Below, piece after piece: positions 3,179-62,909 of a stretch of 64,000 nt of DNA. Positions within the stretch are counted from its first letter, which is position 1; every line of letters begins with the position of its first letter. Origin of the DNA: Macrostomum lignano (taxonomy: Eukaryota); assembly GCA_002269645.1 (NCBI GenBank), contig NIVC01000254.1, forward strand, positions 558,001 through 622,000, read 5' to 3'. The notes under the pieces were generated by a model, which saw only the letters and a list, made by a program, of their open reading frames with translations, ran no database searches and was not told where the DNA came from. Made by a program: the position numbers and the translations under genes.

Positions 3179-3511
3179 GAGAAGGGTTTCTAATCAAACT
3201 ACCATGGAAACAGGCTGAAGGTGAATAGAGCCCCAGGAGGTCAACCACTAGGCAGTTGCAAATCCTATAATCTACAGTGTTGCTATGTGGAAATCCGGTA
3301 TGGCAAGTTAATCCAATTTCAGTAATAGAAAGCCATCATTATTAACGGAGGCGTTTTCTCACCAGCAATGTCTGTTGCTATGTGGATAATAAACCATTAA
3401 AGCTTGGCACATTTCAGGGGATTTCACGTGAGAAATGGGGTGACTGCTTTACAGTTTGACTTCCATTCCTCAAATTTTCACTCACTTTCCCAAACACTGT
3501 TCCGAACTCCT

Positions 3512-5932
3512 TCTCCCATCTCTTTCCCATCTCTCTCCCATCTCTCTCCCATCTCTCAACCATCTCTCTCCCATCTCTCCCATCTCTATCCCATTTCTCT
3601 CTCATCTCTCTCCCATCTCTCTCCCATCTCTCTCCCATCTCTCCTATCTTTCCCATCTCTCTCCCATCTCTCTCCTATCTCTCTCCCATCTCTCCTATCT
3701 TTCCCATCTCTCTCCCATCTCTCTCCCATCTCTCTCCCATCTCTCCTTCCATTTGACTTCAATCTCTCTCCCATCTCTCTCCCATCTCACTCCCATCTCT
3801 CTCCCATCTCACTCCCATCTCTCTGCCATCTCTCTGACATCTCTCCCATCATCCCATCTCTCTCCCATCTCTCTCCCATCTCTCTCCTATCTCTCTCCCA
3901 TCTCTCCTATCTTTCCCATCTCTCTCCCATCTCTCTCCCATCTCTCTCCCATCTCTCCTATCTTTCCCATCTCTCTCCCATCTCTCTCCCATCTCTCTCC
4001 CATCTCTCCTTCTTTCCATCTCTCTCCCATCTCTCTCCCATCTCTCTCCCATCTCTCTCCCATCTCACTCTCCATCTCTCTCCCATCTCACTCCCATCTC
4101 TCTCCCATCTCACTCCCATCTCTCTGACATCTCTCCCATCATCCCATCTCTCTCCCATCTCTCTCCCATCTCTCTCCCATCTCTCTCCTATCTCTCTCCC
4201 ATCTCTCCTATCTTTCCCATCTCTCTCCCATCTCTCTCCCATCTCTCTCCCATCTCTCCTTCCATTTGACTTCAATCTCTCTCCCATCTCTCTCCCATCT
4301 CACTCCCATCTCTCTCCCATCTCTCTCCCATCTCTCTGCCATCTCTCTGACATCTCTCCCATCATCCCATCTCTCTCCCATCTCTCCTTCCATTTGACTT
4401 CAATCTCTCTCCATCTCTCTCCCATCTCACTCCCATCTCTCTCCCATCTCTCTCCTATCTCACTCCCATCTCTCTCCCATCTCTCTGACATCTCTCCCAT
4501 CATCCCATCTCTCTCCCATCTCTCCTTCCATTTGACTTCAATCTCTCTCCCATCTCTCTCATATCTCACTCCCATCTCTCTGACATCTCTCCCATCATCC
4601 CATCTCTCTCCCATCTCTCCTTCCATTTGACTTCAATCTCTCTCCCATCTCTCTCCCATCTCACTCCCATCTCTCTCCCATCTCTCTGACATCTCTCCCA
4701 TCATCCCATCTCTCTCCTATTTCTCATATCTCTCCTATCTCTCAACCATCTCTCTCCCATCTCTCCCATCTCTATCCCATTTCTCTCTCATCTCTCTCCA
4801 ATCTCTCTCCCATCTCTCTCCCATCTCTCCTATCTTTCCCATCTCTCTCCCATCTCTCAACCATCTCTCTCCCATCTCTCCCATCTCTATCTCATTTCTC
4901 TCTCATCTCTCTCCCATCTCTCTCCCATCTCTCTCCCATCTCTCTCCCATCTCACTCCCATCTCTCTCCCATCTCTCTGACATCTCTCCCATCATCCCAT
5001 CTCTCTCCTATTTCTCCCATTTCTCTCTCATCTCTCTCCCATCTCTTTCCCATCTCTCTCCCATCTCTCCTATCTTTCCCATCTCTCTCCCATCTGTCTC
5101 CTATCTCTCTCCCATCTCTCCTATCTTTCCCATCTCTCTCCCATCTCTCTCCTATCTCTCTCCCATCTCTCCTATCTTTCCCATCTCTCTCCCATCTCTC
5201 AACCATCTCTCTCCCATCTGTCCCATCTCTATCTCATTTCTCTCTCATCTCTCTCCCATCTCTCTCCCATCTCTCTCCCATCTCTTTTCCCTCTCCAATC
5301 TCTTTTCCATCTCTCTCTTATCTCTCTCCTATCTCTCTCCCATCTCTCTCCTATCTCTCTCCTATCTCTTTTCCCTCTCCAATCTCTTTCCCATCTCTCT
5401 TCCATCTCTCTCCCATCTCTCCCCCATCTCTCTTCCATCTCTCTCCCATCTCTCTCCCATCTCTCTCCCATCTCTCCTATCTTTCCCATCTCTCTCCTAT
5501 CTCTCAACCATCTCTCTCCCATCTCTCCCATCTCTATTTCATTTCTCTCTCATCTCTCTCCCATCTCTCTCCCATCTCTCTCCCATCTCTCTCCCATCTC
5601 TCTTCCATCTCTCTCCCATCTCTCTCCCATCTCTTTTCCATCTCTCTCCCATCTCTCTCCCATCTCTCTCCCATCTCTTTTCCCTCTCCAATCTCTTTTC
5701 CATCTCTCTCCTATCTCTCTCCTATCTCTCTCCCATCTCTCTCCTATCTCTCTCCCATCTCTTTTCCCTCTCCAATCTCTTTCCCATCTCTCTTCCATCT
5801 CTCTCCCATCTCTCCCCCATCTCTCTTCCATCTCTCTCCCATCTCTCTCCCATCTCTCTCCCATCTCTCTCCCATCTCTCTCCCATCCCTCTCCAATCTC
5901 TCTCTCATCTCTCTCCCATTTCTGCCATCTCA
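3512..5932. repeat. 11-bp polypyrimidine minisatellite (TCTCTCCCATC)n
   Basis: Direct reading, ~2.4 kb, with higher-order blocks marked by CCATTTGACTTCAAT. Confidence 0.95.
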
Positions 5933-6012
5933 TCTACATGTTTAGATGTATTCTTTCAACGCATTTTCAACTTCAACTTTGCAACTTAAAGCCTATATCT
6001 TATGCATGCAAG

Positions 6013-6692
6013 TGTTGGGCTGCGCCCTTCCAGTGTGTATGTACTCGTACTTTTGTTTTCAGTTTTCATGCCACCCCGCCCCGTCCCCCGTCTCGCGCCC
6101 GGGCCAGGGTTTGTGAGAGGCGTAAGTCTCAACCCTGGCCTAGCCCTTTGCACCCAGCCCCCGGCCCAATCTCTGTCCAATCTGGGTGCCCCCCCCCTCC
6201 CTCGTTGCCCGCCTCACCCTGGGGCTGCTCGTATTGGCTGGCTGGCTGATAAGCCGGCTGGGCCCCAGGGTTTGGCTCGCCGTCTCCATTCTGCCCCACC
6301 CCTCCCCCTTTTTTGTGTATTATTTAAATGCTAGCCCTGAGCGGGCTGCGCTCCACGGGGCTCTCTATTGGTGTCCGCTTCGTTCTTACTGTTTTTGCGT
6401 TCATCGGCGTACCTCTGCTTCGTGCCAATAAACGCTTCGTTAGTAACTCGATATATCAAGGAGAGGTGAGCTCGAGCTTTCGTTCTTCTGGGTTGCCGCG
6501 TGGGGCCGGGATCTGCAGGGACCTGGGGACGGTGAACTCTCGCCGATCCCAGGGTGTTCGGTCAGGCGAACTCTCGCCGAACCGAGCGAGACAGGGTAGG
6601 AATAGCCGGGGTGAGGGCTGGGACCGGGGTGTCTCAGGCGGGGAGGGCCCGAACCTTGACCCGTCCAGCGGCCATTAGGCCGAGACACAACA
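6013..6692 (+). repeat. 5' LTR (680 bp)
   Basis: By-eye identical to 13935-14613 except CTCCACGGGG here versus CTCCACGGG. TATA-like TATTTAAA at 6321-6328 and AATAAA at 6427-6432. Confidence 0.97.
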
Positions 6693-6694
6693 AG

Positions 6695-6712
6695 TGGTGC
6701 CGTGACCAGGAT
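6695..6712 (+). promoter_or_regulatory. Primer-binding site complementary to tRNA-His(GTG) 3' end
   Basis: TGGTGCCGTGACCAGGAT starts 2 nt after the LTR end. It is the reverse complement of ...ATCCTGGTCACGGCA-CCA, the 3' end of invertebrate tRNA-His (recalled from memory). Confidence 0.88.
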
Positions 6713-6816
6713 CAGCGGTCCTCTCCCCTGCTGTCCTGCCGTGTGTTTAGGGTTGTGTGTGTTGCCTAGTTTATTTGTGTGTTGTTTGCTTCGGTTGTCT
6801 CTGTGTTTTTGTAGCC

Positions 6817-7797
6817 ATGGCCAATTTAGACGATCTGATTGACGCCCTGACGGCGCGTCTGCAAAACGAACTTAATGTGGCACAGCGGGTGCCGAGGCCA
6901 AATAAGTACGTGCCCACACAGGACTTTGCCCTTTGGATGCAACAATTCACAGGGTATTGTGAGGCGGCTCATATTCTAGGGGATCAGCGCAAGCAGGCGC
7001 TGCTCAGTCTGCTTGACTTTAATACTGCTTTTAAGGCTGTTGCGAATCTTGAGTTGGCCGATGATTTGCCGTATGATGAGTTTGTTGAGCAGCTAGAAGC
7101 TAGGTTTGATGAGAATAGGACTGCTCAAGATTACAAGACCGAGTTCCAGAGTAGGAATCAGAAAGATGGCGAGCCCATTGAAGAATATGCAGACGTGCTC
7201 AAGGAGCTTATGAGAAAATCGTACCCAATGCTGCCAGCGGCCCAGCGAGAAGAGTTGGTGAAAGACAGGTTTTTGAAGGGGATTCGGGTGCCAGCCCGGG
7301 TGCTGGAGAGCGTGCTGCTGCAAGCGCCAGAGACGCTCCAGGACGCTATTAGGCGGGTGCGTCAAGTGAGGGCATCGTTGGCTCTGATGGAGCCTGAGGG
7401 TAAGCGAGCTGTGCACATGGTGGGGGGTCAGGCCGCAGCGGCTGGCAACAGCCAGGAGTCCAGGGCAGCCGCCGAGATAGCAGCTCTGAAAGCGGAAGTG
7501 GCTCAGCTAAAAGCAAGTGCTGCAGCGCCCACTGCGCCGATGGCGACAGCAAGGTCTGAGCAGCCAAAAGTGAGCTTGCAGCATCGAGCCCCTGAGCAGA
7601 GTCAGCAGCAGAGGCAGTGTGGTCGGTGCCTGCAGACAGGGCATACTACGGCTCGGTGCCGTAATGCAGTGGTCTGCCGGGAGTGTGGCCAGTCAGGGCA
7701 CATGCGCAACCGCTGCTATCGTCGGTGGGACCAGTCGGGTTCGGGAAACGGATTGGGGGCTCGGCCGGGGCACCCGTCCGGGCCCCAGCGTCAGTGA
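6817..7797 (+). CDS. gag: Gag (retrotransposon capsid plus two CCHC zinc knuckles)
   Basis: ATG in GCCATGG context at 6817 (MANLDDL...). Capsid-like region with FQSRNQKDGEPIEEY and LVKDRFLKG. Knuckles CGRCLQTGHTTARC and CRECGQSGHMRNRC. Confidence 0.93.
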   Translation: MANLDDLIDALTARLQNELNVAQRVPRPNKYVPTQDFALWMQQFTGYCEAAHILGDQRKQALLSLLDFNTAFKAVANLELADDLPYDEFVEQLEARFDENRTAQDYKTEFQSRNQKDGEPIEEYADVLKELMRKSYPMLPAAQREELVKDRFLKGIRVPARVLESVLLQAPETLQDAIRRVRQVRASLALMEPEGKRAVHMVGGQAAAAGNSQESRAAAEIAALKAEVAQLKASAAAPTAPMATARSEQPKVSLQHRAPEQSQQQRQCGRCLQTGHTTARCRNAVVCRECGQSGHMRNRCYRRWDQSGSGNGLGARPGHPSGPQRQ

Positions 7798-10700
7798 ATC
7801 CGGGTGCATCGGGGGCCGCGGCCTTGTCCCAGAGTGTGCTGAGTCGGCAGGGACTGGGCTATGTGGATGCACAGTTTAGGTTTGGGCCCCCGATTGCATG
7901 TCTGCTGGACAGCGGGGCCACCGTGTCGTTGTTAAGCAACCGTTTCCTGAAGTCTAGAAAAGCCGACATTGACTTATCGCCGAATTTGCCGAATTTTTCC
8001 GTTTTCGCTGCCAATGGGGAACCGATTGCTGTACATGGAATGGTGACGATGAAGTTTTCTGTTGGGGACACCGAGTTTTTGCACGAGTTCGCTGTGGTCG
8101 AGGAACTGGCTGTGGCATGTATTCTGGGCACTGACTTTTTCGTGAGACACGGGATGGCGATTGACTTTGCTAGGAATTGCTTGCAGACTGCATCCTGTGT
8201 GTATCCGTTTCGCTTATCAGCAGATAAGCCGCGTCTTTGCCGTCTGGTGCTGAGTCAGCCTGAGCAGTTCAATGCAGGTCAAGAGAAGGTGGTGCACGTC
8301 AGGTTGCAGAGAAGGGTTCCCTCTGGGGTTCAGTTCCTAGGCATTGTGGAGTCTGAGAGGAGAGTGAGTAACGAGCAGATGGTGGCCAGATCGGTACAGA
8401 TGCCTGACGGGGACGGTCGCTTGGCTGTCAGGGTGTTGAACACGTCAGGATGCAGTCTGTCATTAAGGAAGGGAAGCCGAATTGGTTGGTTCTCCCCAGT
8501 GGCGGCCCAGCAGCCAGCTGGGTGGCAGGTGAACTCGGTGGAGAGTGTCCGAGACGACTGGAACCCCCTCAGCGATGTCAAGGAGTGGGGAGGATGTGGC
8601 CTGACGGGCGATGAGAAGCACGAGTTTGAGCGCCTGATGGCTCGGAATCGTGATGTCTTTGCCAGGGATAGCTCGGAGTTGGGACAGTCACACTTGATGG
8701 CGCATGAGATTGACACCGGCAACGCCAAGCCAGTAAGTCAGCCCGCGCGTAGGATTCCACCGCGCTGGAAGGAGGAAATTGATAAGCAGGTTGATGAGTT
8801 GTTGCAGCAGGATCGCATCTATCCCTGCTACTCTCCGTGGGCGAGCCCGATCGTGCCGGTTAAAAAGGCCGACGGTAGCTTGAGGTTGTGTCTAGACTAT
8901 CGGCGCCTTAACGAGGTCACAGTGCCAGATCCTTACCCACCGCCGCGGATGGACGAGACGCTTGATGCGCTAGGAGGGAACTGTGTTTTCTCGACGATGG
9001 ATCTGGCCTCCGGCTATCATCAGTGCCCGATTGAGCCGAAGGACCAGTTGAAAACGGCGTTCGTGGTACCCAACAGGGGTCAGTTCGCCTGGAAGTGCAT
9101 GAGTTTTGGCTTGCGCAATGCTCCCGCTACGTTCGCCAGGCTAATGTCTATGGCCCTGTCTGAGGTTAACTGGAAGGAGTGCCTGGTGTACTTTGACGAT
9201 ATAGTCGTGTTCGCCAAGTCGGTGGGTCAGCATCTCGAGCGATTGAAGCATGTTTTCCAGTGCCTGAGGGATGCCAATGTCAAGCTGAAGCCCGCCAAGT
9301 GTGTGTTCCTCGCAGAGCGGGTGAAGTTTCTGGGCCACATCGTCTCTCAGGAGGGGATCGCAACGGACCCGAGCAAGTGCGAGGAGATCCAGAATTGGCC
9401 GAGGCCATGTAGCGCCAAGAAGGTGCAGGCATTCCTGGGTACGTGCGCCTACTATCAGTCATTTATCCCGCAGTTTTCGGAGATTGCAGCGCCGCTGTAT
9501 AGGTTAACCGCAGACGGAGTGAAGTTTGAGTGGGGTAGTGAAGAGGAGAGTTCGTTTTGCAGGCTGAAAGACGCTTTGTGTTCACCGAATGTGATGGCAT
9601 TCCCGGATTTTTCGCCTGGTGCCGGGGAGTTCATCCTCGACACGGACGCCAGTTCGCGCGTCGGGCTGGGAGCCGTCCTGTCACAGCGTCAAGCAGATGG
9701 CCGTGAGAAGGTGATCGCTTACGGGTCTAGGATGATTCATGCGGCGGAGAAAAATTATTGCACCACCAGGTTAGAGTTGCTTGCCGTCGTGCACTTCGTC
9801 AAAAAGTATAGGTACTATTTGTTAGGTAGAAAGTTCACTGTTCGTTCAGACCACAAAGCTTTGCAGTGGCTAGCCAGTCTGAAGGACGTAGAGGGTCAGT
9901 GCGCAATGTGGCTTGAGTCGCTCCAGAACTTCGACTTTGAGATCATTCACAGGCCAGGCAAGGAGCACGGCAACGCTGATTCGCTGTCTCGCAAGTACCG
10001 AAAACACGCTGGCCATGAGAGCTGCCCTAGCTGCCAGTTTAGCGAGAATGTGCCAGTAGTGAACGCGGTGTTTGGCAGTGGGCTGTCTTCGAAGGAAGTC
10101 CAGCAGGCGCAAGTGGCCGAGAAGAAGCTTGCAGCTGTCCGCTCCTATGCCCTGGACCCGGGTTCGAACCCCAGTGCGCCTAGAGTGATGTCGTGGGAGG
10201 AGCGTGTGCTGTGGGCACAACGGCAGCTGATAAGAGTAGAGTCTGATCTGTTGTATTTTCAGAGTCCCGGGAGTGGGTGCCAGAAAAAGATCTTGCTGCC
10301 GCCGGCTTTGCTGCCGAAAGTGCTCAGTGAGCTTCATGATGGGGTTGCAGGAGGGCACCTTGGGGTTAGGAAGACACAAGAGAAAGTGAAGGCGAGATAC
10401 TGGTGGCCGGGGCTGAGTCGTTCCGTGGAAGAGTATTGCCGGAGCTGTGTCCACTGTGCGAAGGCGAAGCCTTGGCGCAGCAACCGGGCGCCTTTGCAGC
10501 CAATCTGCTCGGAAGGAGCTTTCCAGAGGATCATGAGTGACATTGTCGGGCCGTTGCCCAAGTCCAGAGGTGGCAATCGATTCGTGCTGACAATCCAGGA
10601 TTCTTTTACTAAGTGGCCGGTGGCGGTGCCCTTGTCCAATCAGCGAGCCCCGACGGTGGCGCGAGCGATTTTTGATCACTGGATTGCGCACTTTGGTTGT

Positions 10701-11681
10701 CCTGAATTTCTAGTCACCGATAAGGGCACCAATTTTGAGTCGGCTTTGATGAAGCAGTTGTGTCGGTTGCTTGCCGTTAAGAAATGCAGAACGTCCTCCT
10801 ATCACCCGATGGCTGATGGTCAGGCTGAGAGTTTCAATAAGACGTTGAAGTCAATGATCAAGTGCAGGATGAGTGAGTCGGTGGGCGAAGGAGACTGGGA
10901 GGATCTGATCCACCCGTCTCTCATGGCGTACCGTAGCAGCGTTCACAGAGGCACGGGGTACACCCCGTACTACATGCTGTACGCCAGGGAGATGCGGCTT
11001 CCAGTGGACATTGGAACCTTGCCTGAGTCCATTCCTGCCAGTGCTCCGGCGTATGTTCAGTCATTAGGTAATAGTCTGGCTGAGGCTCATTCGCAGGTGC
11101 GGACCAACCTGCAGCAGTACCAGAGGAAACAGAAAGTGCTGTACGACTCAAGGGTGCGAGGCCCGGCCATAGAAGTTGGGGATGCCGTCCTAGAATACTC
11201 GCCTGCGCTGCAGGCAGGGGAGGCAGCCAAGTTCCATTGCAATTGGAAGGGGCCGGCGAAGGTGTTAGAGAAGATATCCGATTTGAATTACCGGGTAAAG
11301 CACGCCAATAGGGGAAAGAGCAAAATAGTGCATTATAATAATTTGCGAAAAGTACCCGAGCGGCCTGAGCAGTTCAGGTTGATGAATAGGCATACGGCAG
11401 TGCAGCGCCGGTCGGCGCATCCGCCTGAGCCGGCAGGGTGCATACAGGAGCCCGCGGGGCCGGCGACTAAAGAGCCGGAACTTGAGGAGGAGGAGGAGTT
11501 TTACTCGTATGTGGTGCCACCAGTTGCCGTTGGGCCTCGGCATGGGATAGTAGGGCCGGGAACGCCAGTTGCGCCATGCGCACCGGTGGCTCCAGCGGCG
11601 CCAGCCGTGTCTCCGCGCAGACTGCGCGAGCGTCGGGGTGTGCCCCCAGCGTATTACGGGAATCCGGTATTGTATCGTTAA
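7683..11681 (+). CDS. pol: Pol polyprotein (protease, RT, RNase H, integrase), -1 frame relative to gag
   Basis: Uninterrupted 1332-codon ORF. Protease LLDSGA; RT LDYRRLN...YFDD; RNase H LDTDAS...ELLAVV...SDHKAL; integrase HDGVAGGH...CRSCVHC, DIVGP/TDKG/AESFN and WKGP (GPY/F-like). Confidence 0.97.
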   Translation: MWPVRAHAQPLLSSVGPVGFGKRIGGSAGAPVRAPASVNPGASGAAALSQSVLSRQGLGYVDAQFRFGPPIACLLDSGATVSLLSNRFLKSRKADIDLSPNLPNFSVFAANGEPIAVHGMVTMKFSVGDTEFLHEFAVVEELAVACILGTDFFVRHGMAIDFARNCLQTASCVYPFRLSADKPRLCRLVLSQPEQFNAGQEKVVHVRLQRRVPSGVQFLGIVESERRVSNEQMVARSVQMPDGDGRLAVRVLNTSGCSLSLRKGSRIGWFSPVAAQQPAGWQVNSVESVRDDWNPLSDVKEWGGCGLTGDEKHEFERLMARNRDVFARDSSELGQSHLMAHEIDTGNAKPVSQPARRIPPRWKEEIDKQVDELLQQDRIYPCYSPWASPIVPVKKADGSLRLCLDYRRLNEVTVPDPYPPPRMDETLDALGGNCVFSTMDLASGYHQCPIEPKDQLKTAFVVPNRGQFAWKCMSFGLRNAPATFARLMSMALSEVNWKECLVYFDDIVVFAKSVGQHLERLKHVFQCLRDANVKLKPAKCVFLAERVKFLGHIVSQEGIATDPSKCEEIQNWPRPCSAKKVQAFLGTCAYYQSFIPQFSEIAAPLYRLTADGVKFEWGSEEESSFCRLKDALCSPNVMAFPDFSPGAGEFILDTDASSRVGLGAVLSQRQADGREKVIAYGSRMIHAAEKNYCTTRLELLAVVHFVKKYRYYLLGRKFTVRSDHKALQWLASLKDVEGQCAMWLESLQNFDFEIIHRPGKEHGNADSLSRKYRKHAGHESCPSCQFSENVPVVNAVFGSGLSSKEVQQAQVAEKKLAAVRSYALDPGSNPSAPRVMSWEERVLWAQRQLIRVESDLLYFQSPGSGCQKKILLPPALLPKVLSELHDGVAGGHLGVRKTQEKVKARYWWPGLSRSVEEYCRSCVHCAKAKPWRSNRAPLQPICSEGAFQRIMSDIVGPLPKSRGGNRFVLTIQDSFTKWPVAVPLSNQRAPTVARAIFDHWIAHFGCPEFLVTDKGTNFESALMKQLCRLLAVKKCRTSSYHPMADGQAESFNKTLKSMIKCRMSESVGEGDWEDLIHPSLMAYRSSVHRGTGYTPYYMLYAREMRLPVDIGTLPESIPASAPAYVQSLGNSLAEAHSQVRTNLQQYQRKQKVLYDSRVRGPAIEVGDAVLEYSPALQAGEAAKFHCNWKGPAKVLEKISDLNYRVKHANRGKSKIVHYNNLRKVPERPEQFRLMNRHTAVQRRSAHPPEPAGCIQEPAGPATKEPELEEEEEFYSYVVPPVAVGPRHGIVGPGTPVAPCAPVAPAAPAVSPRRLRERRGVPPAYYGNPVLYR
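7743..7807 (+). promoter_or_regulatory. -1 ribosomal frameshift signal: G GGA AAC heptamer plus H-type pseudoknot
   Basis: Heptamer 7743-7749 is in the gag frame, followed by a 6-nt spacer. Stem 1: 7756-7764 GGGGCTCGG with 7778-7786 CCGGGCCCC. Stem 2: 7770-7776 GCACCCG with 7801-7807 CGGGTGC. Confidence 0.85.
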
Positions 11682-12018
11682 TTCGCAGTGGGCTCACAAG
11701 GCGGTCGTCATAAATTGATTTTTAATATGCACTTGTATTAATGCCTCCACGCTGTTGTCTATGGTAGAAAGCCTAAAATAACCTAAAATGAAAAAAATGA
11801 TACAACCCCAAAGCACAAAAAAATCATAAAATGGAACGCATGGAAAGCACGTAAAAAACATTAAATGTATTAAAATTACAAAGTATGCTAGGCAAGAAGC
11901 GTTCTCAATCGTATTGTAAAATAAACATGTCATAGGATGGGTCAGGTCAGGGTCACAGTTGCTAGTCCGCAAGGCATAGGTAGTGATTGGGTTTAAATGT
12001 CATCATTGCAGGAGGACC

Positions 12019-13695
12019 ATGTCGTCGCCAACGACACCGACTGATTTGTATGGCGTGTTAGGCGTGGGTCGGACTGCTAACTCTGCGGAGATTGAGGCAG
12101 CGTGTAGTCGTCTGTACTCAAAGCGGCCCCGCGTCTGTCCTGCCGAGGTAGAGTCTCCGGAGTCTCAGCGAGACGTGATGGCGATGTGCGTTTTATCTGA
12201 CCCAGTGTTTCGGGAAGTATACGATCGGGTTGGAGAGGCAGCGTGTCAAGGGGTGTTAAAGTACGCCTACTTTTTCAATCCTCCCCCTGACGTTGAGTTG
12301 CCCGAGCAGGTCAGGTTAGCTTTGGCTAGTCTTAAGGGAAGCGCCGCAGGGGAAGCTCCAGTTCACGCGGAGATCCCAGCCGAGTTATTGGCTCCGGCTG
12401 CGCTTGCTGAGTGTAGGCGGCTGAGGGGTGCGCTGCTGGCGCGGTTGAGGGCTGGGGATAGTGAAGGAGCTTGCCTGGTGGTTCAGGAGGTGGCGAGGTT
12501 TCTTGATGGGGCTGGTGTGAGTGTGCCTGAGCAGTTGTCTAGATTCTTAGCAGTGTCTGTGTCGTTTCTGTGCAATCAGTATGGGCGGAAGAGAGGTTCT
12601 GGTGGTGGCTCCGGGAGGTGTCGGAGGGTCCCGCCTTCGGTGCTGCAGGCGGCGTTTGAGTGCGTGTTGTTGGCTGTGCGGGGTTTTGAGCTGTGTGAGT
12701 TGGGGGGTCCCTTGTTGGGGAGGCTCCGGGGTCTGTCTCTCTTAGTGGATCCTGGCCTCGCGCGGCGCCCGGAGGAGGGGAGTGACGGGCCGCACCTTTC
12801 GCAGACTCCGCTGACGGCCCAGCGCGACTTGGCGACCGAAGAGTTAACGGGTGTCGACCCCGAGCAAGTACGACCGGCCGACACGGTCCAGGAGGTCTCC
12901 CCCCGTGACGACCCGAATCAGCGCAAGGTCAGCTCGGCTAAGCGTCTCGTCGATGCAAAGGCATACCTAACGAGGCTGGGCCGGTCGATTCAGCCCGAGG
13001 ACCTTCGTGGCGTGCGTCGATGTCTAGCGGCTGTAAACTCGCCGTACTGCCTGCGTCTAGAATGTCCCGTTGTCCGACCACTGCTGCAAGACCGACGGAT
13101 CGTGTTCGCCCTGGGCCTGAAGGCCAGTGCTGCACCGTGGTGGCCATCGCTGCGAGACGATGTACGACGATTTCTAGCGGGTAGCTGGCCGCGTGTCGTG
13201 GCGGTCGGCGAAGTCGAGCTCAATTGGGACGCTGAGAGGTCGCAGCGCCAGGACCAGTTAACGGCGGCGATGGAGCAGTTCTTGCTTGCCAAGGAGTTCG
13301 GCCTGCCGGTTTTGTTCCGAGTTGAAGGCGGCGAACCTGCCTGGGCGGTCGCCCTAGGATTCCTCCGGCAGCCGGAGTTTCAAACGATGAGCGTCATGCT
13401 GGCCGAGGACCTGGACTTGCCGGAGGCCGTCGAGGCCGCGCTGGTGAGCAAGTGCCACGGGGTCTTCTTCGAGGTGTCCGCTCGGTGCCGAGGATCCCCG
13501 CGAGCGGTCCAACGGGCTAAGCGTCTCCCGCGGCAGCGCCTGCTAGTGACATCGGCCGCACCGTTTGGTGGAGACCCCAAGGACCCGACAGCCATCAAGT
13601 TCGTGCCGGAAGCCCTAGCGGACAGTGAATGTGATCGCAGGTACTGGACTCGACTGTTTGCGACCAACTGTAGTAGATTTTTTGGCCGATTGTAG
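12019..13695 (+). CDS. ORF3: DnaJ-like N-terminal domain, helical/linker region, and TatD-like amidohydrolase (TIM-barrel) domain, both apparently degenerate
   Basis: ATG at 12019 (ACCATGT); the ORF is open from 11983. J-like: DLYGVLGVGRTANSAEIEAACSRL...VLSDPVFREVYDRVGE (~12043-12237). TatD-like (~12946-13692): VDAKAY, VVAVGEVELNW, FLLAKEFGLPVLFRV, LPRQRLLVTSAAPF, LFATNCSRFF. Lies between pol and the PPT. Confidence 0.85.
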   Translation: MSSPTTPTDLYGVLGVGRTANSAEIEAACSRLYSKRPRVCPAEVESPESQRDVMAMCVLSDPVFREVYDRVGEAACQGVLKYAYFFNPPPDVELPEQVRLALASLKGSAAGEAPVHAEIPAELLAPAALAECRRLRGALLARLRAGDSEGACLVVQEVARFLDGAGVSVPEQLSRFLAVSVSFLCNQYGRKRGSGGGSGRCRRVPPSVLQAAFECVLLAVRGFELCELGGPLLGRLRGLSLLVDPGLARRPEEGSDGPHLSQTPLTAQRDLATEELTGVDPEQVRPADTVQEVSPRDDPNQRKVSSAKRLVDAKAYLTRLGRSIQPEDLRGVRRCLAAVNSPYCLRLECPVVRPLLQDRRIVFALGLKASAAPWWPSLRDDVRRFLAGSWPRVVAVGEVELNWDAERSQRQDQLTAAMEQFLLAKEFGLPVLFRVEGGEPAWAVALGFLRQPEFQTMSVMLAEDLDLPEAVEAALVSKCHGVFFEVSARCRGSPRAVQRAKRLPRQRLLVTSAAPFGGDPKDPTAIKFVPEALADSECDRRYWTRLFATNCSRFFGRL

Positions 13696-13922
13696 AGTAG
13701 AATTGCGTTCTTAAGCCCGTTTTCAATTTTTGCGTACGCAATAGTTGTGTCCCGTTTTCATTTTTTCGTTTTTGTTTTTTGTAATGCCGGCGATATCCAC
13801 GCGTCGCGTCAAAGTTTTTCTGTTATTTTTCGGCCGTCGTTTTTTGAATTAACTTTTTTTCAGACTTGCTTGTTCATGCGTTGCTTTTTGCTTGACATCC
13901 CCTTTCTCCTCTTCTTTTTCGT

Positions 13923-13934
13923 GGAGGGGGAGGA
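13923..13934 (+). promoter_or_regulatory. Polypurine tract (plus-strand primer)
   Basis: GGAGGGGGAGGA directly abuts the TG of the 3' LTR. Confidence 0.9.
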
Positions 13935-14613
13935 TGTTGGGCTGCGCCCTTCCAGTGTGTATGTACTCGTACTTTTGTTTTCAGTTTTCATGCCACCCCG
14001 CCCCGTCCCCCGTCTCGCGCCCGGGCCAGGGTTTGTGAGAGGCGTAAGTCTCAACCCTGGCCTAGCCCTTTGCACCCAGCCCCCGGCCCAATCTCTGTCC
14101 AATCTGGGTGCCCCCCCCCTCCCTCGTTGCCCGCCTCACCCTGGGGCTGCTCGTATTGGCTGGCTGGCTGATAAGCCGGCTGGGCCCCAGGGTTTGGCTC
14201 GCCGTCTCCATTCTGCCCCACCCCTCCCCCTTTTTTGTGTATTATTTAAATGCTAGCCCTGAGCGGGCTGCGCTCCACGGGCTCTCTATTGGTGTCCGCT
14301 TCGTTCTTACTGTTTTTGCGTTCATCGGCGTACCTCTGCTTCGTGCCAATAAACGCTTCGTTAGTAACTCGATATATCAAGGAGAGGTGAGCTCGAGCTT
14401 TCGTTCTTCTGGGTTGCCGCGTGGGGCCGGGATCTGCAGGGACCTGGGGACGGTGAACTCTCGCCGATCCCAGGGTGTTCGGTCAGGCGAACTCTCGCCG
14501 AACCGAGCGAGACAGGGTAGGAATAGCCGGGGTGAGGGCTGGGACCGGGGTGTCTCAGGCGGGGAGGGCCCGAACCTTGACCCGTCCAGCGGCCATTAGG
14601 CCGAGACACAACA
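13935..14613 (+). repeat. 3' LTR (679 bp)
   Basis: Direct repeat of 6013-6692, ends in CAACA and is followed by the TSD CAAG. Confidence 0.97.
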
Positions 14614-15142
14614 CAAGCTACCCTCAGAGATAAATAGCAATGAAAGAAGATTTCTTCAAGTCACATTTTTCTGTAAACACACACACTGCCAGTGAGGCAT
14701 TTATCAGCAGCTGTGCAGAATATTTTTTACAGTCGCATCATAATGCACATATTTATAAGCGAAAGTACCATTCTTAAGATGAGAATGGCAATTTAAAATT
14801 TATAACCCGTTTCGGTATGCATTTTTTATTATATTGTTGAGCCATAAATTCGAGATGACTTGTAAACTATATTTCTTAATATTTAATTGTGTGACTCAAC
14901 TCTTTAGAATATGGAATAAAACTCAAGGTCTACTCATTATGCTGAGTTATGAATCATTTTTAAATAATAAAACTTACTCAAACTCGAATATTGTAAGATT
15001 AATCCTGTCCTGGGTGGCAACTAAGTATTCTTAATCTAGAGCTAAGTTGGATGGTCCGTCATTCGTACCTATAATATGCTGTCTTGTTTTGCTTCTCTTT
15101 CAGTCAGGTCCCATATGTAAGCCCTTGCTATTTTCCCTCAGC

Positions 15143-15965
15143 TCTATCTCCCATCTCCCATCTCCAATCTCGAATCTCCAATCTACCATCTCCCCTCTCC
15201 CATCTCCCATCTTCCATCTCTCATCTCCAATCTCACATCTCCTATCTCGAATCTCCCATTCCCCATCTCCCGTCTTCCATCTCTCATCTCCCATCTCACA
15301 TCCCCATCTCTCATCTCCTATCTCGAATCTCCCATTCCCCATCTCCCGTCTTCCATCTCTCATCTCCCATCTCACATCCCTATCTCCAATCTCCTATCTC
15401 GAATCTCTTATCTGCCATCTTCCATCTCACATCTCCCATCTCCCATCTCGCATCTCCCATCTTCCATCTCCCATCTCCCATCTCCCATCTTCCATCTTCC
15501 ATCTTCCATCTTCCATCTTCCATCTCCCATCTTCCATCTTCCATCTCCCATCTCCCATCTTCCATCTTCCATCTTCCATCTCCCATCTCCCATCTCCCAT
15601 CTCCCATCTCCAATCTTCATCTCCGATCTCCTATCTCGAATCTCCCATCGCTCTTCTTCCATCTCCCGTCTTCCATCTCTTATAGCTCTCATCTCAAATC
15701 TCACTTCTCAAATCTCCCATTCCCCATCTCCCATTTCCCGAATCTCGTTTTCCATCTCTCATCTCCCATCTCCTATCTCACATCTCGTATCCCCATTTCC
15801 CATCTCCAATCTCGAATCTACCATTCCCCATCTCCCATTTCCCGAATCTCGTTTTCCATCTCTCATCTCCCATCTCCCATTTCACATCTCGCATCCCCAT
15901 TTCCCATCTCCTATCTCGAATCTACCATTCCCCATCTCCAATCTTCCGTCTCCCATCTCCCATCT
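15143..15965. repeat. 7-bp-based polypyrimidine repeat (CATCTCC/CATCTTC)n
   Basis: Direct reading. Confidence 0.92.
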
Positions 15966-17789
15966 CTAATCTGCACTGTCTCATCCACCGGCTGTTTTTT
16001 TCACTGACCATCTGCTATTAGAAAATTTAGATTGTAATGAATCATATTAGTAAAAATGTCCTATACATGTAGCAATGGTGTTCGAGCTGAACTAAAATAG
16101 TCCGAGTTTGTTGCCATGTGCACTCAGGTAAAATTCTAATTTGGGTCAAATTTTACACTAGAAAGAATTTGGCCTGGTTCAAGCAATCCATTATTTGAGT
16201 ATTTAAACTTCACTGGTTCAATGAGACGAAAATGATTTCATTAATGAGATTGGCTTAAAACATAATAAGCTTTCTGATTCTTTTTTGCCTTGCATCAACA
16301 CCTTCAGTGCAGGAGCATATCATATTTGCTAAGTCTCACGGATAATTCAAATTTGGTTGCACAATATTCATTGGAATTCAGCCCAAAATATGGTTTGGGT
16401 TTTAGCACCGACCCCACACTGGTGCACCATGCAGTTCCACCTCACTGGGGAGTGAGACCAACAATGACAATGCAGTCCTTCCTCAATCTAAATCCTTTTT
16501 AATTCCCCGTGTTTCGTTCGAGGCCATTGTAAAGGCGTGTCGAGGTTAAGGTGCGAAAAGTCAGCCGATCAAATGTTTACTTATTTCACTTGTATAGACA
16601 AACTGTGTAGTGTTATTCATTTTCAACACTGCCAGTCCTTGACTCGTTGACTTTTTTAGTTGAGCCAAGTAAATAATATTGAGGTCCGAAGTTTGCTTAA
16701 CTTTCTAATCGCCTTTATAGTTTTAGCTGGCCCCAGTAATAATATTTTTACTAAGGCTTTGCAGATGTTTGACAAAGTCAATAATCATGTGCACCAAAAT
16801 CGAACTGAACAGACTGCATACGTGTAGAAATATTCGCGTAACCATATTTTAGCCGCAACGAGTAAATAGACACAGCTGGGCACTTGAAAGATCAAGAAGA
16901 GAGCAAGAGTAAAGCGTCGAGCACCATTGGCATTATTATAGTAAAAATACATATTATATAGTCTACAGACAACGTGAATATGTATTTATAGAGTAATCCT
17001 TATTGGCTTATAAAGATTATGTGACTTTGTCAGTTTTAGGTGCAGTAAACATTAGCTGTGCTACGAAGTCTCGTAGATAATACAGGTCTTGTTCATTCAA
17101 GTTTAAATTTAGAGCTCTCCTATTGGCTAGGCGGTCTTAGCCAATAAGAATCGTTCCATCCCTATCCTTTTGCCGGGACAGAGGGGTAGAGGCAAGCCAA
17201 CCACCCCAAAACCGCCGCACGCAGCCAGTAGGAATAGAAAATTATAGGAGTGCGGTGAAGTACCGGGGATTTAAAGCAAGAAAGAAAGCTAGTTAAGCAA
17301 GTAATCAAGAAATTGAGTTCCTCGAACAGGCAGACTACTATTATTTCAAATGGCGCATCACAGTTCCGATTGCAGTGTGGACAAAATTTCCGGTGAGTGT
17401 ATTTAAGTCTAAAATCATAATACATTATTAGTGCAACTGTTTTATTATTTATTATGCCGATTGATTGACTATGCTGAAGAAAGAAAGCCTTCTGTAGTAT
17501 ATAAAGGGGCCTGGACATAAGGTATCAGATTTCCTGCGCGTGTCAGCTCCTAGTCTGTCAGTTGTCGGGTCATAATATAGCTTAAGCTGCTTAACTAAAT
17601 GCATAATTCTAAATGTCCTTGCACAGGGTGGTACCAACTGTGCAGAATTGCATGCCAGTGCTGCGACACCAGAATTCATAGCGCATTTTTGTAGCTTCTT
17701 ATATTTCTGGTAGTTTTTAAGTTTACTGCAGTGCTACTGGACTTTTATTGATTTTGCCGAAATGCAGTTCAGACTCAGAGGGTAGCGGC

Positions 17790-17975: not shown

Positions 17976-18863
17976 AGTCAGCGGAGGCCTAACCAAAAAA
18001 AGAAAATTGGAAATTTCAGATGATACTCATTCATTTGGCGCTATCGTGTAATTTTTAGGTACTGCTAATATTAGCTTCAGCTTAGTGATCGATTGATCAG
18101 TGTTCCATGCTTAAAAGTAAAATGACATACGCTCATTAAATATGCAATCTTATCTTCTTCCTATTTTATATTTCAAGTCGATTTAATTGGCATTATTTAC
18201 TACGCAATTCCATCTACGTAAGTATCTTATACCCCGAAAAAAAACACGTGACGTCACACATTCAGGCTGCTTGATTCATAATTTGGTGTCCACTGTCCCA
18301 GTCATGCTTCATCGCGATCCTATCTAGAGTTTATAAATCATTCGAAAGTGAAAGCTCTTCTTGTTTTTTTCTTGTAATTCTTCTTTCGCGCGACGAAATC
18401 TGAAATCTGATTCAGCGACAGAAGAAAACTTTTCTTAGAAAAGGAGGGCCTAGCCCTATATACATATATTCGATTGAATTTAGATTATAAGATTGCGCAA
18501 GCCACACTATTCAGATATACAGATAGATATCCATCGCCAAATGATATAATTAGTTAGCCAATTATAATTACGCGCGACAATGTATATAAAGAACATTTAG
18601 AAGTGGCAATGCATGGCTGACTAGGACTAGGGGGCGATAATTATCTTATTCCTCCATTTGACCATTTCATCCTTATCGCTTTACTCGGCGTAAAATTTCT
18701 CTATACTAGCTGGCTAAAAAATCTGGATTACCCTTCTCCAGCTATAAATTGACCAATTATCTTGTTTATAACAAAAGTACTCATCAGATAAACAATCGCT
18801 GATTATTTTATGTTTATTATTTAATTTTATTCTTGATTTTCTCTCAAAATTTCGCATTCCCAG

Positions 18864-21800
18864 AGCATCAACTAGCGCAGCAGATTCAGGAGGCAGCGGC
18901 GGCTGCAGCAGCTGATTCAGGATTTCCCAGTTCGCCAATGGATCTGAGTCAAAGCCGCCAGGGTGGCGCCCGATGCAGTTCAGCCGACGAGGACGTTGAA
19001 ATAGACGTCGAAGGAGTTGGAGGAGAAGGAGAAGACGACTACGAAGCAAACAAAACCGGGAATTCAAGATGGTCTCAATCGCCATCATCGAAGCGTTCGA
19101 AGTTCGAATTCGACGATGACAATTCGGAGGAATCCGATAGCGCAGATCCGCTGGCCAGGTTCATGATCGTGTGCGACAGTGATAAGGTCAAGTGGCGACA
19201 GCTAATCGATCGGCACAGGGGGCATCAGCCGCCGAATCGTTGCGGCGAGTGTCAGAGAGATTTCCGGTGTCGGAGCGCGCTGATGACGCACTACAGGACT
19301 CATACAGGTAAGACTCGGGGGGGGGGGGTCAGACGGGACGGGTTAAAAAGTTTTCGGGATCGGAATCCTACCTCTAGAACATAAACTGTTAAAGTTACTA
19401 CTGATAATTGGTAATCAGTAGTCTAACGTCAATATATTGTCTTGACGTCAAAATAACGCACTGCCACTGAGTTTGCAATTGAGACGTAAACAATTTAATT
19501 TAAATTTAACAATTTAATCTGTTATATTTCCAGCACTACCAAAGTTTCTCGTTTCCCTTCAGTTAATGTTGACCCAGACAGATTAACATTAAATTTACAG
19601 CATTATTTTACTTTGCGTGCGTATTTTGCAGGAAAAACAAAGCATATTAAGTATTCACAATGTGCCGCTTGTTATTTATTATTTTAGGGGCGCGAGACGA
19701 AACTTCTTAAACTAAGAAGTTTAATAGTGACTTATAATAGAATTAGTAAGTAGTATTAATAATAACAGACCTCTAGTTAAACTTATACGTCGTATTGAAA
19801 AGAATTGGTTAAAATTCGTTGGTCGCGTTTCGTCAGTTCATTTCTCATTCCCGGGCCCATCCTCAACTCCTTATCAGTATCAGCGCCCAGACATTTTTAT
19901 TACATCGACCGGGCCGGGGGAGGATGGTGGGTGGGGGTTTAAAATTAAATTCAATTCAAACCACTAGCGAGCGCGCGCGGCGGGGGGTTTCCATCAGAAG
20001 CCGCCACCACCCCATTTCTCGTCCCCCTCCGGGTTAGGCTTTACGCCTACCAAAAACTCTCCTTTAAACTTGTGTGAAGATTCAAACTTTAAATTTTAAT
20101 TACAATTGAGACGCGACGCGACTGTCCGTTAAACAACTGTGTAAGTTCTACTTGCACTTAACCGCTATTAATAACAACTTAGCTTAGATTGTAAACAACT
20201 ATTTTTGTTTTACTGTAAATTTTATGCTATACTGCAAGACTAAAGATTAATAAACACATAGTTAAACTGGTTAATTATTAATGGCAAGAATAAAATCATA
20301 GAAATTGATTTTATTACAATGAATAACTACCGTCTCAAACTTTAAGGCTCACTCAATATGTACTTCTCAAGATAGCCAATAGGCGTGCTCGAATTTTTGT
20401 CATTTTCAGTTAGAATTTATTAAAGATAGTCGTATCATATCTGGCTACCGCTCGTGCCAGGCCGTGAAACTTAAAAATTTTCTTTGAACTGAGTAAAAAA
20501 CAGTTACATTTGTTGAAACTTTGACCTTCACTTGACTCGTAACTCTTTTGTGTTGATTTTTTTCAGTTCGAACTTATGGGGGTGTGGCACACTGACGCTC
20601 TCAGGCTTTTTTATTTGGCTTTAAGCTTAATCATCAATTTGATAAGATAGTTAATTGTGCCAGTGCGTGCTGTCATGTTAAAAAAGGCAGAAAAATGGAA
20701 ATGACAAATCCGATATCAAACCGACTCTTAACTCTAATGCCATGCATATTCCTTCCATACCAGACGAGCGACCTTACCTGTGCTCCATCTGCCAGAAGAG
20801 CTTCGCCACTAAAGGCAATCTAAAGTCGCATCTGAACGTGCACCCTGAAGCTCAGCAGCTGCTGCAGCAGAAACTGCCCAACTCTGACTGTAGCAGCAGC
20901 TCAACCGCAGCTTGTACAATGGCTCCGACCCCGAACCCCCCAGCTCAGGAGCCGCTGCAGCAGCCCAGTGCGCTGATCAGTAATTCTATGAAATCAACCA
21001 CTAGCGGCTGCTTCTTTAGCAATGACGATCGGCCAACTTGGATGCTGGATAAAATGGTGAGAGAGAATTTTATTGAACTCTCAAACCCGAAATATCACAA
21101 ACCCGTAATATCACAAACTCGAAATGTCACAAACCCGAAATGTCACAAACCCAAAATATCACAAACCCAAAATGTCACAAACTCGAAATGTCACAAACTC
21201 GAAATGTCACAAACCCAAAATATCACAAACCCAAAATGTCACAAACTCGAAATGTCACAAACTCGAAATGTCACAAACCCAAAATATCACAAACCCAAAA
21301 TGTCACAAACTCGAAATATCATAAACCCAAACTGTCACAAACTCGAAATATCACAAACCCGAAATTCCACAACCGAAATATCACAAACACAAAATATAAC
21401 AAACCCGAAATATCACAAACCCGTAGCATCACAAACCCGAAATATCACAAACCCGAAATGTCACAAACCCGTAGCATCACAAACCCGAAATATCACAAAC
21501 CCGAAATGTCACAAACCCGAAATATCACAAACCCGAAATGTCACAAACCCGAAATATCACAAACCAGAAATGTCACAAACCCGAAACATCACAAACCGAA
21601 ACTGTCACTAACCCGAAATATCACAAACTCGAAACATCACAAACCCGAAATATCACAAACCCAAAATATCACAAACCCAAACTGTCACAAACTCGAAATA
21701 TAACAAACCCGAAATGTCACAAACCCGAAATGTCACAAACCCGAAATATCACAAACTCGAAACATCACAAACCCGAAATATCACAAACCCAAAATATCAC

Positions 21801-38081: not shown

Positions 38082-39480
38082 TTTGAGTTTCGACCTAAAA
38101 ATCGTTTTACATTCAAGTGTTTTCTGCTAAATCGATCTTTTTGTTATTTTTATCTTATCGGGAACTGGAACTGAAAAACCGGTCACTATAAAAGAATAAT
38201 AGAAGTCTTTAAAGTTTTTAACTAAAGCTTTTTCTTAAATCTTAATCATTTCGGTATTTTCTGACTTTTTTGTATTTAAGTAGAATATGAACTCGTTTGT
38301 GTAGTTGCAAAGAATAAAATCTGATATGATAACAAATCATTCCATTTATTTTAGTGAAGCATACACTACAGCAGCATAGGCGGTGTTGTCATTGTTTTAT
38401 AATAAATTAGTGACTTTGATTAAATGAAGGTTAAGCTAAACTTTGAGATAAGGCTGAAGTAAACTTTGCTTTGCATTATTTATTTTCATTCATGTTTAGC
38501 CTGTACAAAATTGATTCATTTTTTTAATCCTTATTATTTTACTTTAAAAAATTACTTCACAGTTAGACTTTTACTTAAGCTAAAGTTTTTCTATTGCTTC
38601 AACTTTTTGCAATATTATTAATATTATTCTCATTGATTATAGAATTATTGTTTATAGCAAGGCCTTTTAAGAAAGGCTTTATGCATTCTATTTGAAATTT
38701 GTCCTTAGGCTCCCCCTATACTATCATTATGAAATTTTTTTTGCAAAAATCTTTTTATCTGCCTATCTATGTCTAGACTAACAATTGATAAGGCTTTGAA
38801 TTAAGCCATAAACCATAGGCCTAATTTGAATAAATAGAAGCCTATTTGACATTATATTTTATATTATATTGTATATGATAATTCATTTTTAGTCTATGTT
38901 TTTATTATATTATTTAAATCTTCTAGAATGAAAGTCTGTAATAGGGCCTATAAATTATAATAATAAATAATTCTATTAATAATAATACATTGTTTATTTT
39001 GTTATATAGATTATAGTATTTAAAAAGATAATAAAATAAAATCAAACTTTAAAGACAACTCTTCAGACATTGTTTTACAATTGTATCAAAAAGGGTATGT
39101 CTCACAATTTTTTTATTAATTTTAATTTTTATAAATTTTATGGCATATTTCTCTTATTTTTTAATATTTTTATTAATTATATTTTTTGATGCTTTCATTA
39201 TTGAAGTTTATCAATATTTTGTTATATTAAATATAGTAATATATTAAAATATAGTATTATAATTTTATATACTACAACTTTAAAATCTTGTTTATAACAT
39301 TAATATTATATCTAATAGAGCAAAGCAAATTTTTTAATAGCATATTTTTACCTAGTCTTTTTTCTTAATTTTAACCATATAATGTGGTATATAATTAATG
39401 TATTTGTGGTGTTTTACTTATGGTTTGCTATAAAGTCAGTTTAAAGTCACAAAAATATTCTTCTACTGCATGACTAGACA

Positions 39481-42727: not shown

Positions 42728-42788
42728 CTTTCCATCAGGTGCGAGTTTTGGTTATTTCCCGCTTTTGACGTCTCCTTTCCCGCTGCAG

Positions 42789-62892: not shown

Positions 62893-62909
62893 GTGAGTGC
62901 AGCTGGGCG

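Follow-up and report, generated by a model that had tools for sequence, protein, structure and literature searches.

The window, a stretch of 64,000 nucleotides of Macrostomum lignano (contig NIVC01000254.1, positions 558,001 to 622,000), contains a very young Ty3/Gypsy LTR retrotransposon of ~8.6 kb with a third open reading frame, ORF3, behind pol (Table 1). The element possesses the hallmarks of its group: LTRs with the ends TG...CA, a target site duplication (TSD), a primer-binding site (PBS) which may be tRNA-His-like, a polypurine tract (PPT), gag, and a pol in the order protease, reverse transcriptase (RT), RNase H and integrase (PR-RT-RH-IN). The sole difference between the two LTRs is one indel over 680 columns. 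An earlier note on this DNA, made from the sequence alone, had described a young Gypsy element with a sense ORF of about 558 amino acids between pol and PPT, inside both LTRs, and the LTR pair, the CAAG duplication and the coordinates of ORF3 bear out this description.

Table 1 Features of the retrotransposon in the window. Positions are counted from the first nucleotide of the window; aa amino acids, res residues of ORF3
Feature	Position	Strand	Remarks
TSD	6009..6012 (left), 14614-14617 (right)	+	CAAG, flanks both LTRs
5' LTR	6013..6692	+	680 bp, TG...CA; TATA-like box 6321, AATAAA 6427
Predicted splice donor	6463..6471	+	exon end 6465, then GTGAG; just 3' of poly(A) signal
PBS	6695..6712	+	TGG..., 2 nt past LTR; nearly the same in family B
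gag	6817..7797	+	326 aa, zinc knuckles
pol frame	7665..11681	+	open, 1338 codons; protease, RT, RNase H, integrase
Candidate -1 frameshift heptamer	7743..7749	+	GGGAAAC, stable predicted hairpin next; prediction
Predicted splice acceptor	12006..12011	+	TTGCAG, 7 nt 5' of ORF3 ATG
ORF3	12019..13695	+	558 aa, no internal stop; between pol stop (11681) and PPT
J-like domain	12043..12225	+	res 9-69; HPD site reads YSKRPRV (12115-12135)
Helical domain	12403..12753	+	res ~129-245, ~115 aa; basic Arg/Lys loop 12586-12630
Linker	12754..12933	+	res 246-305; low model confidence, probably disordered
TatD-fold barrel	12934..13692	+	C-terminal part of ORF3
PPT	13923..13934	+	
3' LTR	13935..14613	+	679 bp

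The family of the window element (family A) was found on 22 contigs among the 60 genome matches listed (78 candidates scored), 10 of them with a complete open ORF3 frame and 12 with a broken or partial one. In the family A loci retrieved, ORF3 is located 3' of the integrase and 5' of the same LTR wherever the locus extends that far. The LTR end is reached in 15 of 26 loci and the flanks differ in all 15, while seven copies are just 0-4 nt away from the window copy. Family A is a young family with repeated transposition. Database proteins that are 97-100 % identical to parts of ORF3 carry the label Macrostomum lignano.

The ORF3 protein starts with a J-like domain, which is followed by a conserved PPxG/PPxD extension up to residue ~105, and ends with a barrel of the TatD fold. 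The Pfam matches of the protein itself are below the curated cut-off, both for DnaJ (residues 9-69; E 0.0025, 18.3 bits) and for TatD (residues 359-535; E 4.9e-5, 23.3 bits), whereas the matching regions of sister families exceed it with 49-65 bits (DnaJ) and 32-35 bits (TatD), the J-domain scores of the sister families spanning 31-65 bits in all. Furthermore, with profiles built without family A, ORF3 reaches 47.6 bits for TatD and 52.9 bits for J + helical, far above the best of 500 shuffled sequences (3.9 and 4.0, respectively), and 39 bits are obtained for J-domain homology against a sister-family profile. YSKRPRV occupies the HPD site in 17 of the 18 family A loci read, the remaining one being frameshifted; ORF3 is therefore homologous to the J-domain protein family (PF00226) but lacks its HPD motif. 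The best PDB sequence match of the J region is DNAJB13 (E 6e-5), which was rejected as a specific relative because the J-domain of family C prefers DNAJB12/Sis1.

The AlphaFold model matches TatD/YcfH structures with Z 23.6 and an rmsd of 2.4 Å over 227 residues (Z 20-24 for nine TatD structures, at most 17 for the next families; Foldseek E 8.7e-7), a fold match that is partly circular because the 15-row input alignment included three bacterial TatD rows. The pLDDT is ~80-93 in most of the barrel and 60-85 in the helical domain, with the J region at 55-83; a single-sequence fold with pLDDT 39 was discarded. In comparison to nine intact TatD sequences one of the six metal ligands, Glu398, is retained in ORF3. 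K314/Y316 stand in place of HxH, K368 in place of the GxH histidine and R434 in place of a further His, the second barrel His is absent, and T511/A513 replace the acids of ETD. With respect to the TatD nuclease family (PF01026), ORF3 shares the TIM barrel by homology and lacks the ligand set of HxH (or G/AxN), Glu, His, His and Asp. Both domain assignments of the earlier note are supported, and its readings of a J-like N-terminus without HPD, a TatD/YcfH-like C-terminus and the motifs DAKAY, GEVEL, PVLFR and TSAAPF, with no second barrel His, are all correct. Its designation of the barrel as probably catalytically dead stands in so far as five of six ligands are gone; however, the Glu that is kept is the residue most critical in TATDN1/3. 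Judged by its residues, the barrel is likely, but not certain, to be catalytically dead.

A third conserved domain, the helical one at residues ~129-245, had been missed in the earlier note. Pfam offers no family for it and PDB no sequence match with E below 0.03, and in whole-protein fold searches the matches were filled by the TatD barrel. The histone-chaperone region of DNAJC9 was considered as a relative and rejected (profile comparison probability 0.05); matches to HTH_DNAJC9 (PF23302) in the genome comprise three host loci and no ORF3. No signal peptide, membrane segment or hydrophobic N-terminus is predicted in ORF3 (maximal 19-residue hydropathy 1.49), and a membrane segment is absent from all seven ORF3s examined across families. 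Lacking a signal peptide and a transmembrane anchor, ORF3 was rejected as a member of the envelope class (errantivirus env).

A core consisting of the J-domain and the helical domain is present after pol in the families B, C, F, G, H, I and J as well, and HPD is found in seven of seven sister families with a readable site. Families B (loci L029-L032 and L034, including a full element with 97.7 % identical LTRs) and C (L038) possess a three-part ORF3 like that of A, with ~36 % identity; between B and A the identity is 61 % in gag and roughly 35-58 % in pol, depending on the region. HPD is intact in L029 and L038, and the degraded copies L031/L032 read RPD. The TatD site of B and C is degenerate, too, with four of six ligands lost and the first His and the Glu retained, and every B and C copy seen is interrupted by stops or frameshifts. 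P0003, a database protein from another source, is 51 % identical to the TatD part of A, has the same degenerate site and groups with A; this genome contains no closer match to it than family A. G-E is invariant in the TatD parts of A, B, C and P0003.

Further multi-copy ORFs came to light in a search with the J-domain of family C; F is represented by 19 rows, G by 25 at 99-100 % and H by 18 near-full-length ones. One locus each was retrieved for F, G, H, I and J. The first four have the layout integrase, ORF of 293-328 aa, PPT and LTR start, and in J the ORF is fused to RT-RNase H via an apparent deletion. Each of these five ORFs comprises a DnaJ domain above the cut-off, in which HPD is present, as well as an acidic linker and the helical domain. 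TatD is missing in all of them; at least five ORF3 families rich in young copies have none. The ORF3 of family H additionally contains a chromo domain (47.7 bits), and the basic Arg/Lys loop of the helical domain is conserved across families. A SIM-like motif, hydrophobic and then acidic, was defined as a hydrophobic core with an acidic/Ser stretch (PMC12751080). Its strict pattern occurs in four of eight families (B, C, G and I) and in 0.4-1.4 % of 5000 shuffles per sequence, a pattern chosen after the sequences had been seen, with B and C being related and acidic linkers favouring such motifs. A looser pattern additionally matches E and F, and none is found in A, H and J. In the sister family K, whose integrase is 73-81 % identical to that of A, no J, helical or TatD match exists in three of three loci; missing in so close a sister, ORF3 is dispensable.

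ORF3 is under purifying selection. In comparison to two 96 %-identical copies the NG86 dN/dS of the family A ORF3 is 0.33 and 0.28, with bootstrap upper limits of 0.52-0.56, and pol gives 0.21 and 0.09 in the same comparisons. Between B and C a dN/dS of 0.10 over 542 codons was obtained for ORF3 and 0.09 for the integrase, dS being near saturation. Among three family A copies pN/pS is 0.27 for the J, 0.20 for the helical and 0.40 for the TatD part, based on small counts. The earlier note had held that the frame was kept open and had named a dN/dS near 1 as the result that would speak against it; the values are well below 1 and agree with its view. The N-terminal half of the family A ORF3 has a branch of 1.81 versus 0.32 for the integrase, a fast evolution which goes in step with the loss of HPD and the SIM-like motif.

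In the integrase and ORF3 trees A, B and C are found on one side of a branch (100/99 and 98/99, respectively). Rooting on one distant outgroup unites A, B, C and K in a clade (100/100), the root being placed by a single long-branch row. In our reading, an ORF3 with J and helical domain is ancestral to a larger Macrostomum Gypsy clade, TatD was appended once, later, to this existing ORF3 in one sub-clade, and family K lost or replaced the gene. As far as the sequences of the sister families can tell, the loss of HPD is peculiar to family A. The proposal of the earlier note that the element itself had captured and fused two folds and thereby lost both activities does not fit this order, in which an HPD-bearing J-domain is ancestral and TatD was added later. 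The comparison with host and bacterial TatD it had suggested was carried out with TATDN1/3-like host rows and 11 bacterial rows; the sequence searches had returned no TATDN2. The resulting tree does not single out a donor, neither host TatD being rejected as sister (p-AU 0.09 and 0.17). The two host TatD genes found in the genome have kept their catalytic motifs.

Predicted splice sites suggest that ORF3 is likely translated from an env-like spliced mRNA, which would join a donor in U5 to an acceptor just 5' of the ORF. In seven of seven families a YAG precedes the J start by 20 nt at most; in G, H and I it directly adjoins the ATG. An acceptor of the type [T/C]TNCAG occurs once per spacer in six of the seven (background 0.003 per nt); in the window TTGCAG is the only one in the 337-nt spacer between pol and ORF3. 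The pyrimidine tracts of the acceptors are weak (0.35-0.60), and in the family A copy L010 the acceptor is altered. The ORF3 of family C has no in-frame ATG, the acceptors of B and C are followed by TG, and LTR donors of the B and D type end in A (the donor of C itself lies outside the retrieved sequence), so that splicing would supply the start codon. The database gene model P0004 joins the LTR donor of A to the ORF3 acceptor, though such models may be ab initio. For family H, NCBI lists ORF3 as a gene model of exactly 328 aa that begins at the predicted ATG. The GenBank annotation of Macrostomum lignano is transcript-based (PMC5730564), and via this annotation the family H model would be supported by transcripts. 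Assembled contigs from four runs, compared over 6013-13934, cover ORF3 and bridge none of the predicted splice sites, which counts neither for nor against splicing, as contigs cannot prove an absence.

In Macrostomum lignano [T/C]TNCAG has also been reported at trans-splice sites, and the spliced leader (SL) ends in ATG (PMC8629364). The leader ATG is in frame with ORF3 in G, H and I only and out of frame in A, F, B and C. For this reason, and because an upstream LTR donor exists, SL trans-splicing was rejected as the sole route; it may occur alongside. An in-frame intron of 96 codons in the database models P0001/P0002 was rejected as well, since it would delete most of the conserved helical domain and is therefore probably a prediction artefact. 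Kinship with the heat-induced Macrostomum lignano LTR families that carry heat-shock elements (PMC12801592) was rejected for want of a canonical element: three-unit GAA/TTC repeats, even with 1 mismatch, are missing in the LTRs of A and B and in the parts of other LTRs scanned.

Third ORFs that encode a captured enzyme fold instead of env have already been described in rotifers and orchids, and a non-env product in Cer1. The ORF3 of bdelloid rotifer LTR elements (DEDDy exonuclease, GDSL esterase; PMC5408684) likewise lies after pol, lacks a membrane segment, carries nuclease-fold cargo and shows family-specific gain and loss, and its messages are typically spliced. However, its catalytic residues are intact and its evolution is reported as not departing from neutrality, whereas here ligands are lost, purifying selection acts and a J core is present; DnaJ and TatD have 0 occurrences in the accessible text of that paper. 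CERV of the Caenorhabditis elegans element Cer1 is a nuclear, non-env regulatory product of a Gypsy-type element made from a spliced mRNA, for which the accessible text describes no J or TatD domain (PMC10309623); its likeness to ORF3 lies in these described traits. An orchid Ty3/Gypsy ORF for an AlkB-type m6A demethylase is a captured host-like enzyme fold with a proposed role in counter-defence (PMC9289625), but it is an active plant enzyme of another fold. The env of Drosophila gypsy shares the position, a spliced transcript and a start codon across the junction (PMC8096092), the latter being predicted here for B and C; unlike env, ORF3 has neither signal peptide nor membrane segment. With the HxH-group nucleases TatD, YcfH and TATDN2-3 (PMC10085689) ORF3 shares the barrel, the GE motif and a DxHxH-like first strand, yet most ligands are missing and the barrel lies behind a J and a helical domain on a retrotransposon.

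A word search with ORF3 in a collection of 5.8 billion proteins revealed no relatives outside this genome, and a search of the same collection with the TatD alignment gave P0002 and six TatD-family proteins only. Among 1.84 billion representatives 13 matches were found (three Macrostomum lignano models, P0003, seven TatD-like and two J proteins). Metagenome and viral contigs contained no ORF3 relatives, and in the Atlas the whole ORF3 had no match and family C gave TatD clusters at 0.93; the protein and contig collections searched hold few animal transposons. In the literature searched, with Repbase, Dfam, GyDB and subscription journals lying outside, no LTR element with an ORF for a J-domain or a TatD protein is described, in line with the earlier note, which knew of no Gypsy accessory gene of this architecture. 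A term search in the accessible text of a recent paper on Macrostomum lignano LTR elements (PMC12801592) found no mention of DnaJ, TatD or ORF. The Gypsy variant with a J + helical (+ TatD) ORF3 is real, selected and apparently undescribed.

Our preferred reading, held tentatively and at somewhat less than an even chance, is that ORF3 is a non-env nuclear adaptor which ancestrally recruited Hsp70 and that the form in the window is an Hsp70-independent nucleic-acid-binding scaffold. In polyomavirus T antigens an HPD-bearing J-domain and a target-binding module aim Hsc70 at a nuclear complex. For the sister families with HPD they serve as a working model, but they belong to DNA viruses, and the window protein lacks HPD; no T antigen is among the fold matches listed for the ORF3 model. 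The mRNA would be spliced in an env-like manner, from the U5 donor to the acceptor just before the ORF, and the ancestral J-domain would bring Hsp70 to a target chosen by the helical domain together with interchangeable modules (SUMO-binding-like motif, chromodomain). There Hsp70 would most likely relax the repression that the host imposes on the chromatin or the nascent RNA of the element itself. The TatD barrel of the sub-clade, devoid of its metal site, would probably serve as a nucleic-acid-binding module, and family A would then have lost HPD and the SIM-like motif, its protein becoming an Hsp70-independent scaffold still under selection. An adaptor is favoured because the modules around the core are nuclear in kind (SIM-like motif, chromodomain, basic loop and nucleic-acid-processing fold). 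Those of the sister families speak more for a nuclear role than for the decoy, particle-assembly or PIWI-loading roles considered in the earlier note. As the window protein has neither SIM-like motif nor HPD, the argument for a nuclear adaptor is drawn from its relatives, and chromodomain and SIM-like motif fit integration targeting equally well. A bolder form of this idea is doubtful: at least eight flatworm Gypsy families would encode a nuclear T-antigen-like Hsp70 co-chaperone with swappable targeting modules, which strips SUMO/heterochromatin silencing complexes, the window gene being a derived Hsp70-independent form.

It is unlikely that ORF3, made from the spliced mRNA, is a Rev- or CERV-like factor which binds unspliced genomic RNA via its Arg-rich loop, and via TatD in the families that have this barrel, and brings the RNA out of the nucleus, with Hsp70 remodelling the RNP in the HPD-bearing families. 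For such a role CERV is a precedent, since this nuclear non-env product of an LTR element comes from a spliced message and is required for genomic RNA export (PMC10309623). The predicted donor and acceptor would make the genomic RNA intron-containing and the basic loop is conserved, but chromodomain and SIM-like motif stay unexplained, and the sister family K exists without ORF3, though it may need no export help. Chromodomains in integrases steer integration, a point in favour of ORF3 acting on the particle or the pre-integration complex: by Hsp70-driven uncoating or assembly, by a dead TatD shielding cDNA ends or RNA:DNA hybrids, the decoy or scaffold idea of the earlier note, or by integration targeting through chromodomain and SIM-like motif. 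This is distinctly unlikely, even though ssDNA ends and abasic sites are substrates of TatD enzymes (PMC10085689), TATDN2 binds R-loops (PMC10711561) and the basic residues K314, K368 and R434 stand at three metal/phosphate His positions. ORF3 is encoded in a frame of its own and shows no evident link to Gag that would allow packaging, and end-shielding is not its core function, since TatD is missing in at least five ORF3 families with many young copies.

The invariant Glu and the substituted basic residues could also form the site of an atypical active nuclease or lyase, and in B and C the first His has been preserved in addition to the G-E shared by A, B, C and P0003. In TATDN1, E112A alone cut both activities and D222A, E220A and H174 changes had little effect (PMC10085689). 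Such an enzyme is nevertheless improbable: five of six ligands were lost together in A and four of six in B and C, D218A lowers TATDN3 30-fold (PMC10085689), TATDN2 needs a second Glu, E705 (PMC10711561), which by its spacing would be the ETD Glu lost in A, and the kept Glu may be structural. The view of the family A ORF3 as a decaying relic, open only through the youth of the family, is already disfavoured and very improbable. The missing HPD and SIM-like motif, the long N-terminal branch, which is expected under partial decay, the broken or partial frames on 12 of 22 contigs and the absence of the gene in K would suit it. However, dN/dS of 0.28-0.33 with upper limits of 0.52-0.56 argues for constraint, P0003 from another source retains the same degenerate TatD at 51 % identity, and in the same set of copies pol, too, is frequently broken, which suggests assembly indels.

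The HPD-bearing J-protein found throughout the clade is of more importance than the double loss in family A. Many Gypsy families share a strongly selected J-domain gene whose natural variants possess or lack HPD, SIM-like motif, chromodomain, pseudo-nuclease or the whole ORF, and these constitute a ready-made comparison series in an animal amenable to RNAi and transgenesis. In addition, the sub-clade adds a lineage of TatD pseudo-enzymes, and some gene models of Macrostomum lignano named 'J domain-containing protein' are transposon genes. Counter-measures of animal retrotransposons against host silencing are poorly known; if the anti-silencing reading is true, ORF3 would represent an anti-silencing system encoded by an animal retrotransposon.

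An intact HPD J-domain ORF3 of 293-328 aa is also found in four further young, multi-copy Gypsy families of M. lignano (see table). The ORF3 of one of them, family H (L043), contains an internal chromodomain and is annotated by NCBI as a host hypothetical protein. Judged by the integrase, the nearest relative of the window's element is family K, in which the pol-to-PPT region spans about 1.3 kb and is devoid of ORF3 (L049:1443-2704, L050, L051). Short open frames of 247 and 141 codons are present there in L049, with a similar arrangement in L050, and none of those in these two copies has a Pfam match. The family K integrase tail carries a SIM-like stretch comprising hydrophobic followed by acidic residues.

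In the window, exons of four host genes, a second, distinct Gypsy remnant and a near-perfect tandem array are present. Long pyrimidine-rich simple repeats adjoin the inserted element at both sides (3400-6008 and 15000-16000). On three contigs elsewhere in the genome, intronless SUMO genes form inverted pairs with 7-22 kb between the partners.

Coordinates of ORF3 genes in sister families, of other window features and of SUMO gene pairs
Feature	Location	Strand
HPD J-domain ORF3, Gypsy family F	L041:1581-2459	
HPD J-domain ORF3, Gypsy family G	L042:1265-2209	
HPD J-domain ORF3, Gypsy family H	L043:1558-2541	
HPD J-domain ORF3, Gypsy family I	L044:1246-2226	
C2H2 zinc-finger protein, host exons	window 18803-24058	
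Tandem array, 197-bp unit, about 47 copies	window 28779-about 38000	
LRR protein, host exons	window 39478-41194	
GRAM/VASt protein, host exons	window 42723-49559	
Gypsy remnant, gag and protease frames	window 57661-59519	(-)
Arrestin-domain protein, host exons	window 62449-62976	
Inverted intronless SUMO gene pairs	G000 contigs C1551, C1565, C2589 (loci L054-L056)	

In the family J locus (L045:2164-3999) a J-domain ORF3 lies in frame downstream of RT-RNase H, both forming one continuous frame, and the integrase has apparently been deleted. The ORF3 of family B is accompanied by two different LTR types, that of L029 and that of L031 (L029:1200-1450, L034), and the L029 copy retains only the final pol codons upstream of ORF3, which together suggests that LTR exchange took place in this family and that non-autonomous derivatives retaining ORF3 arose.
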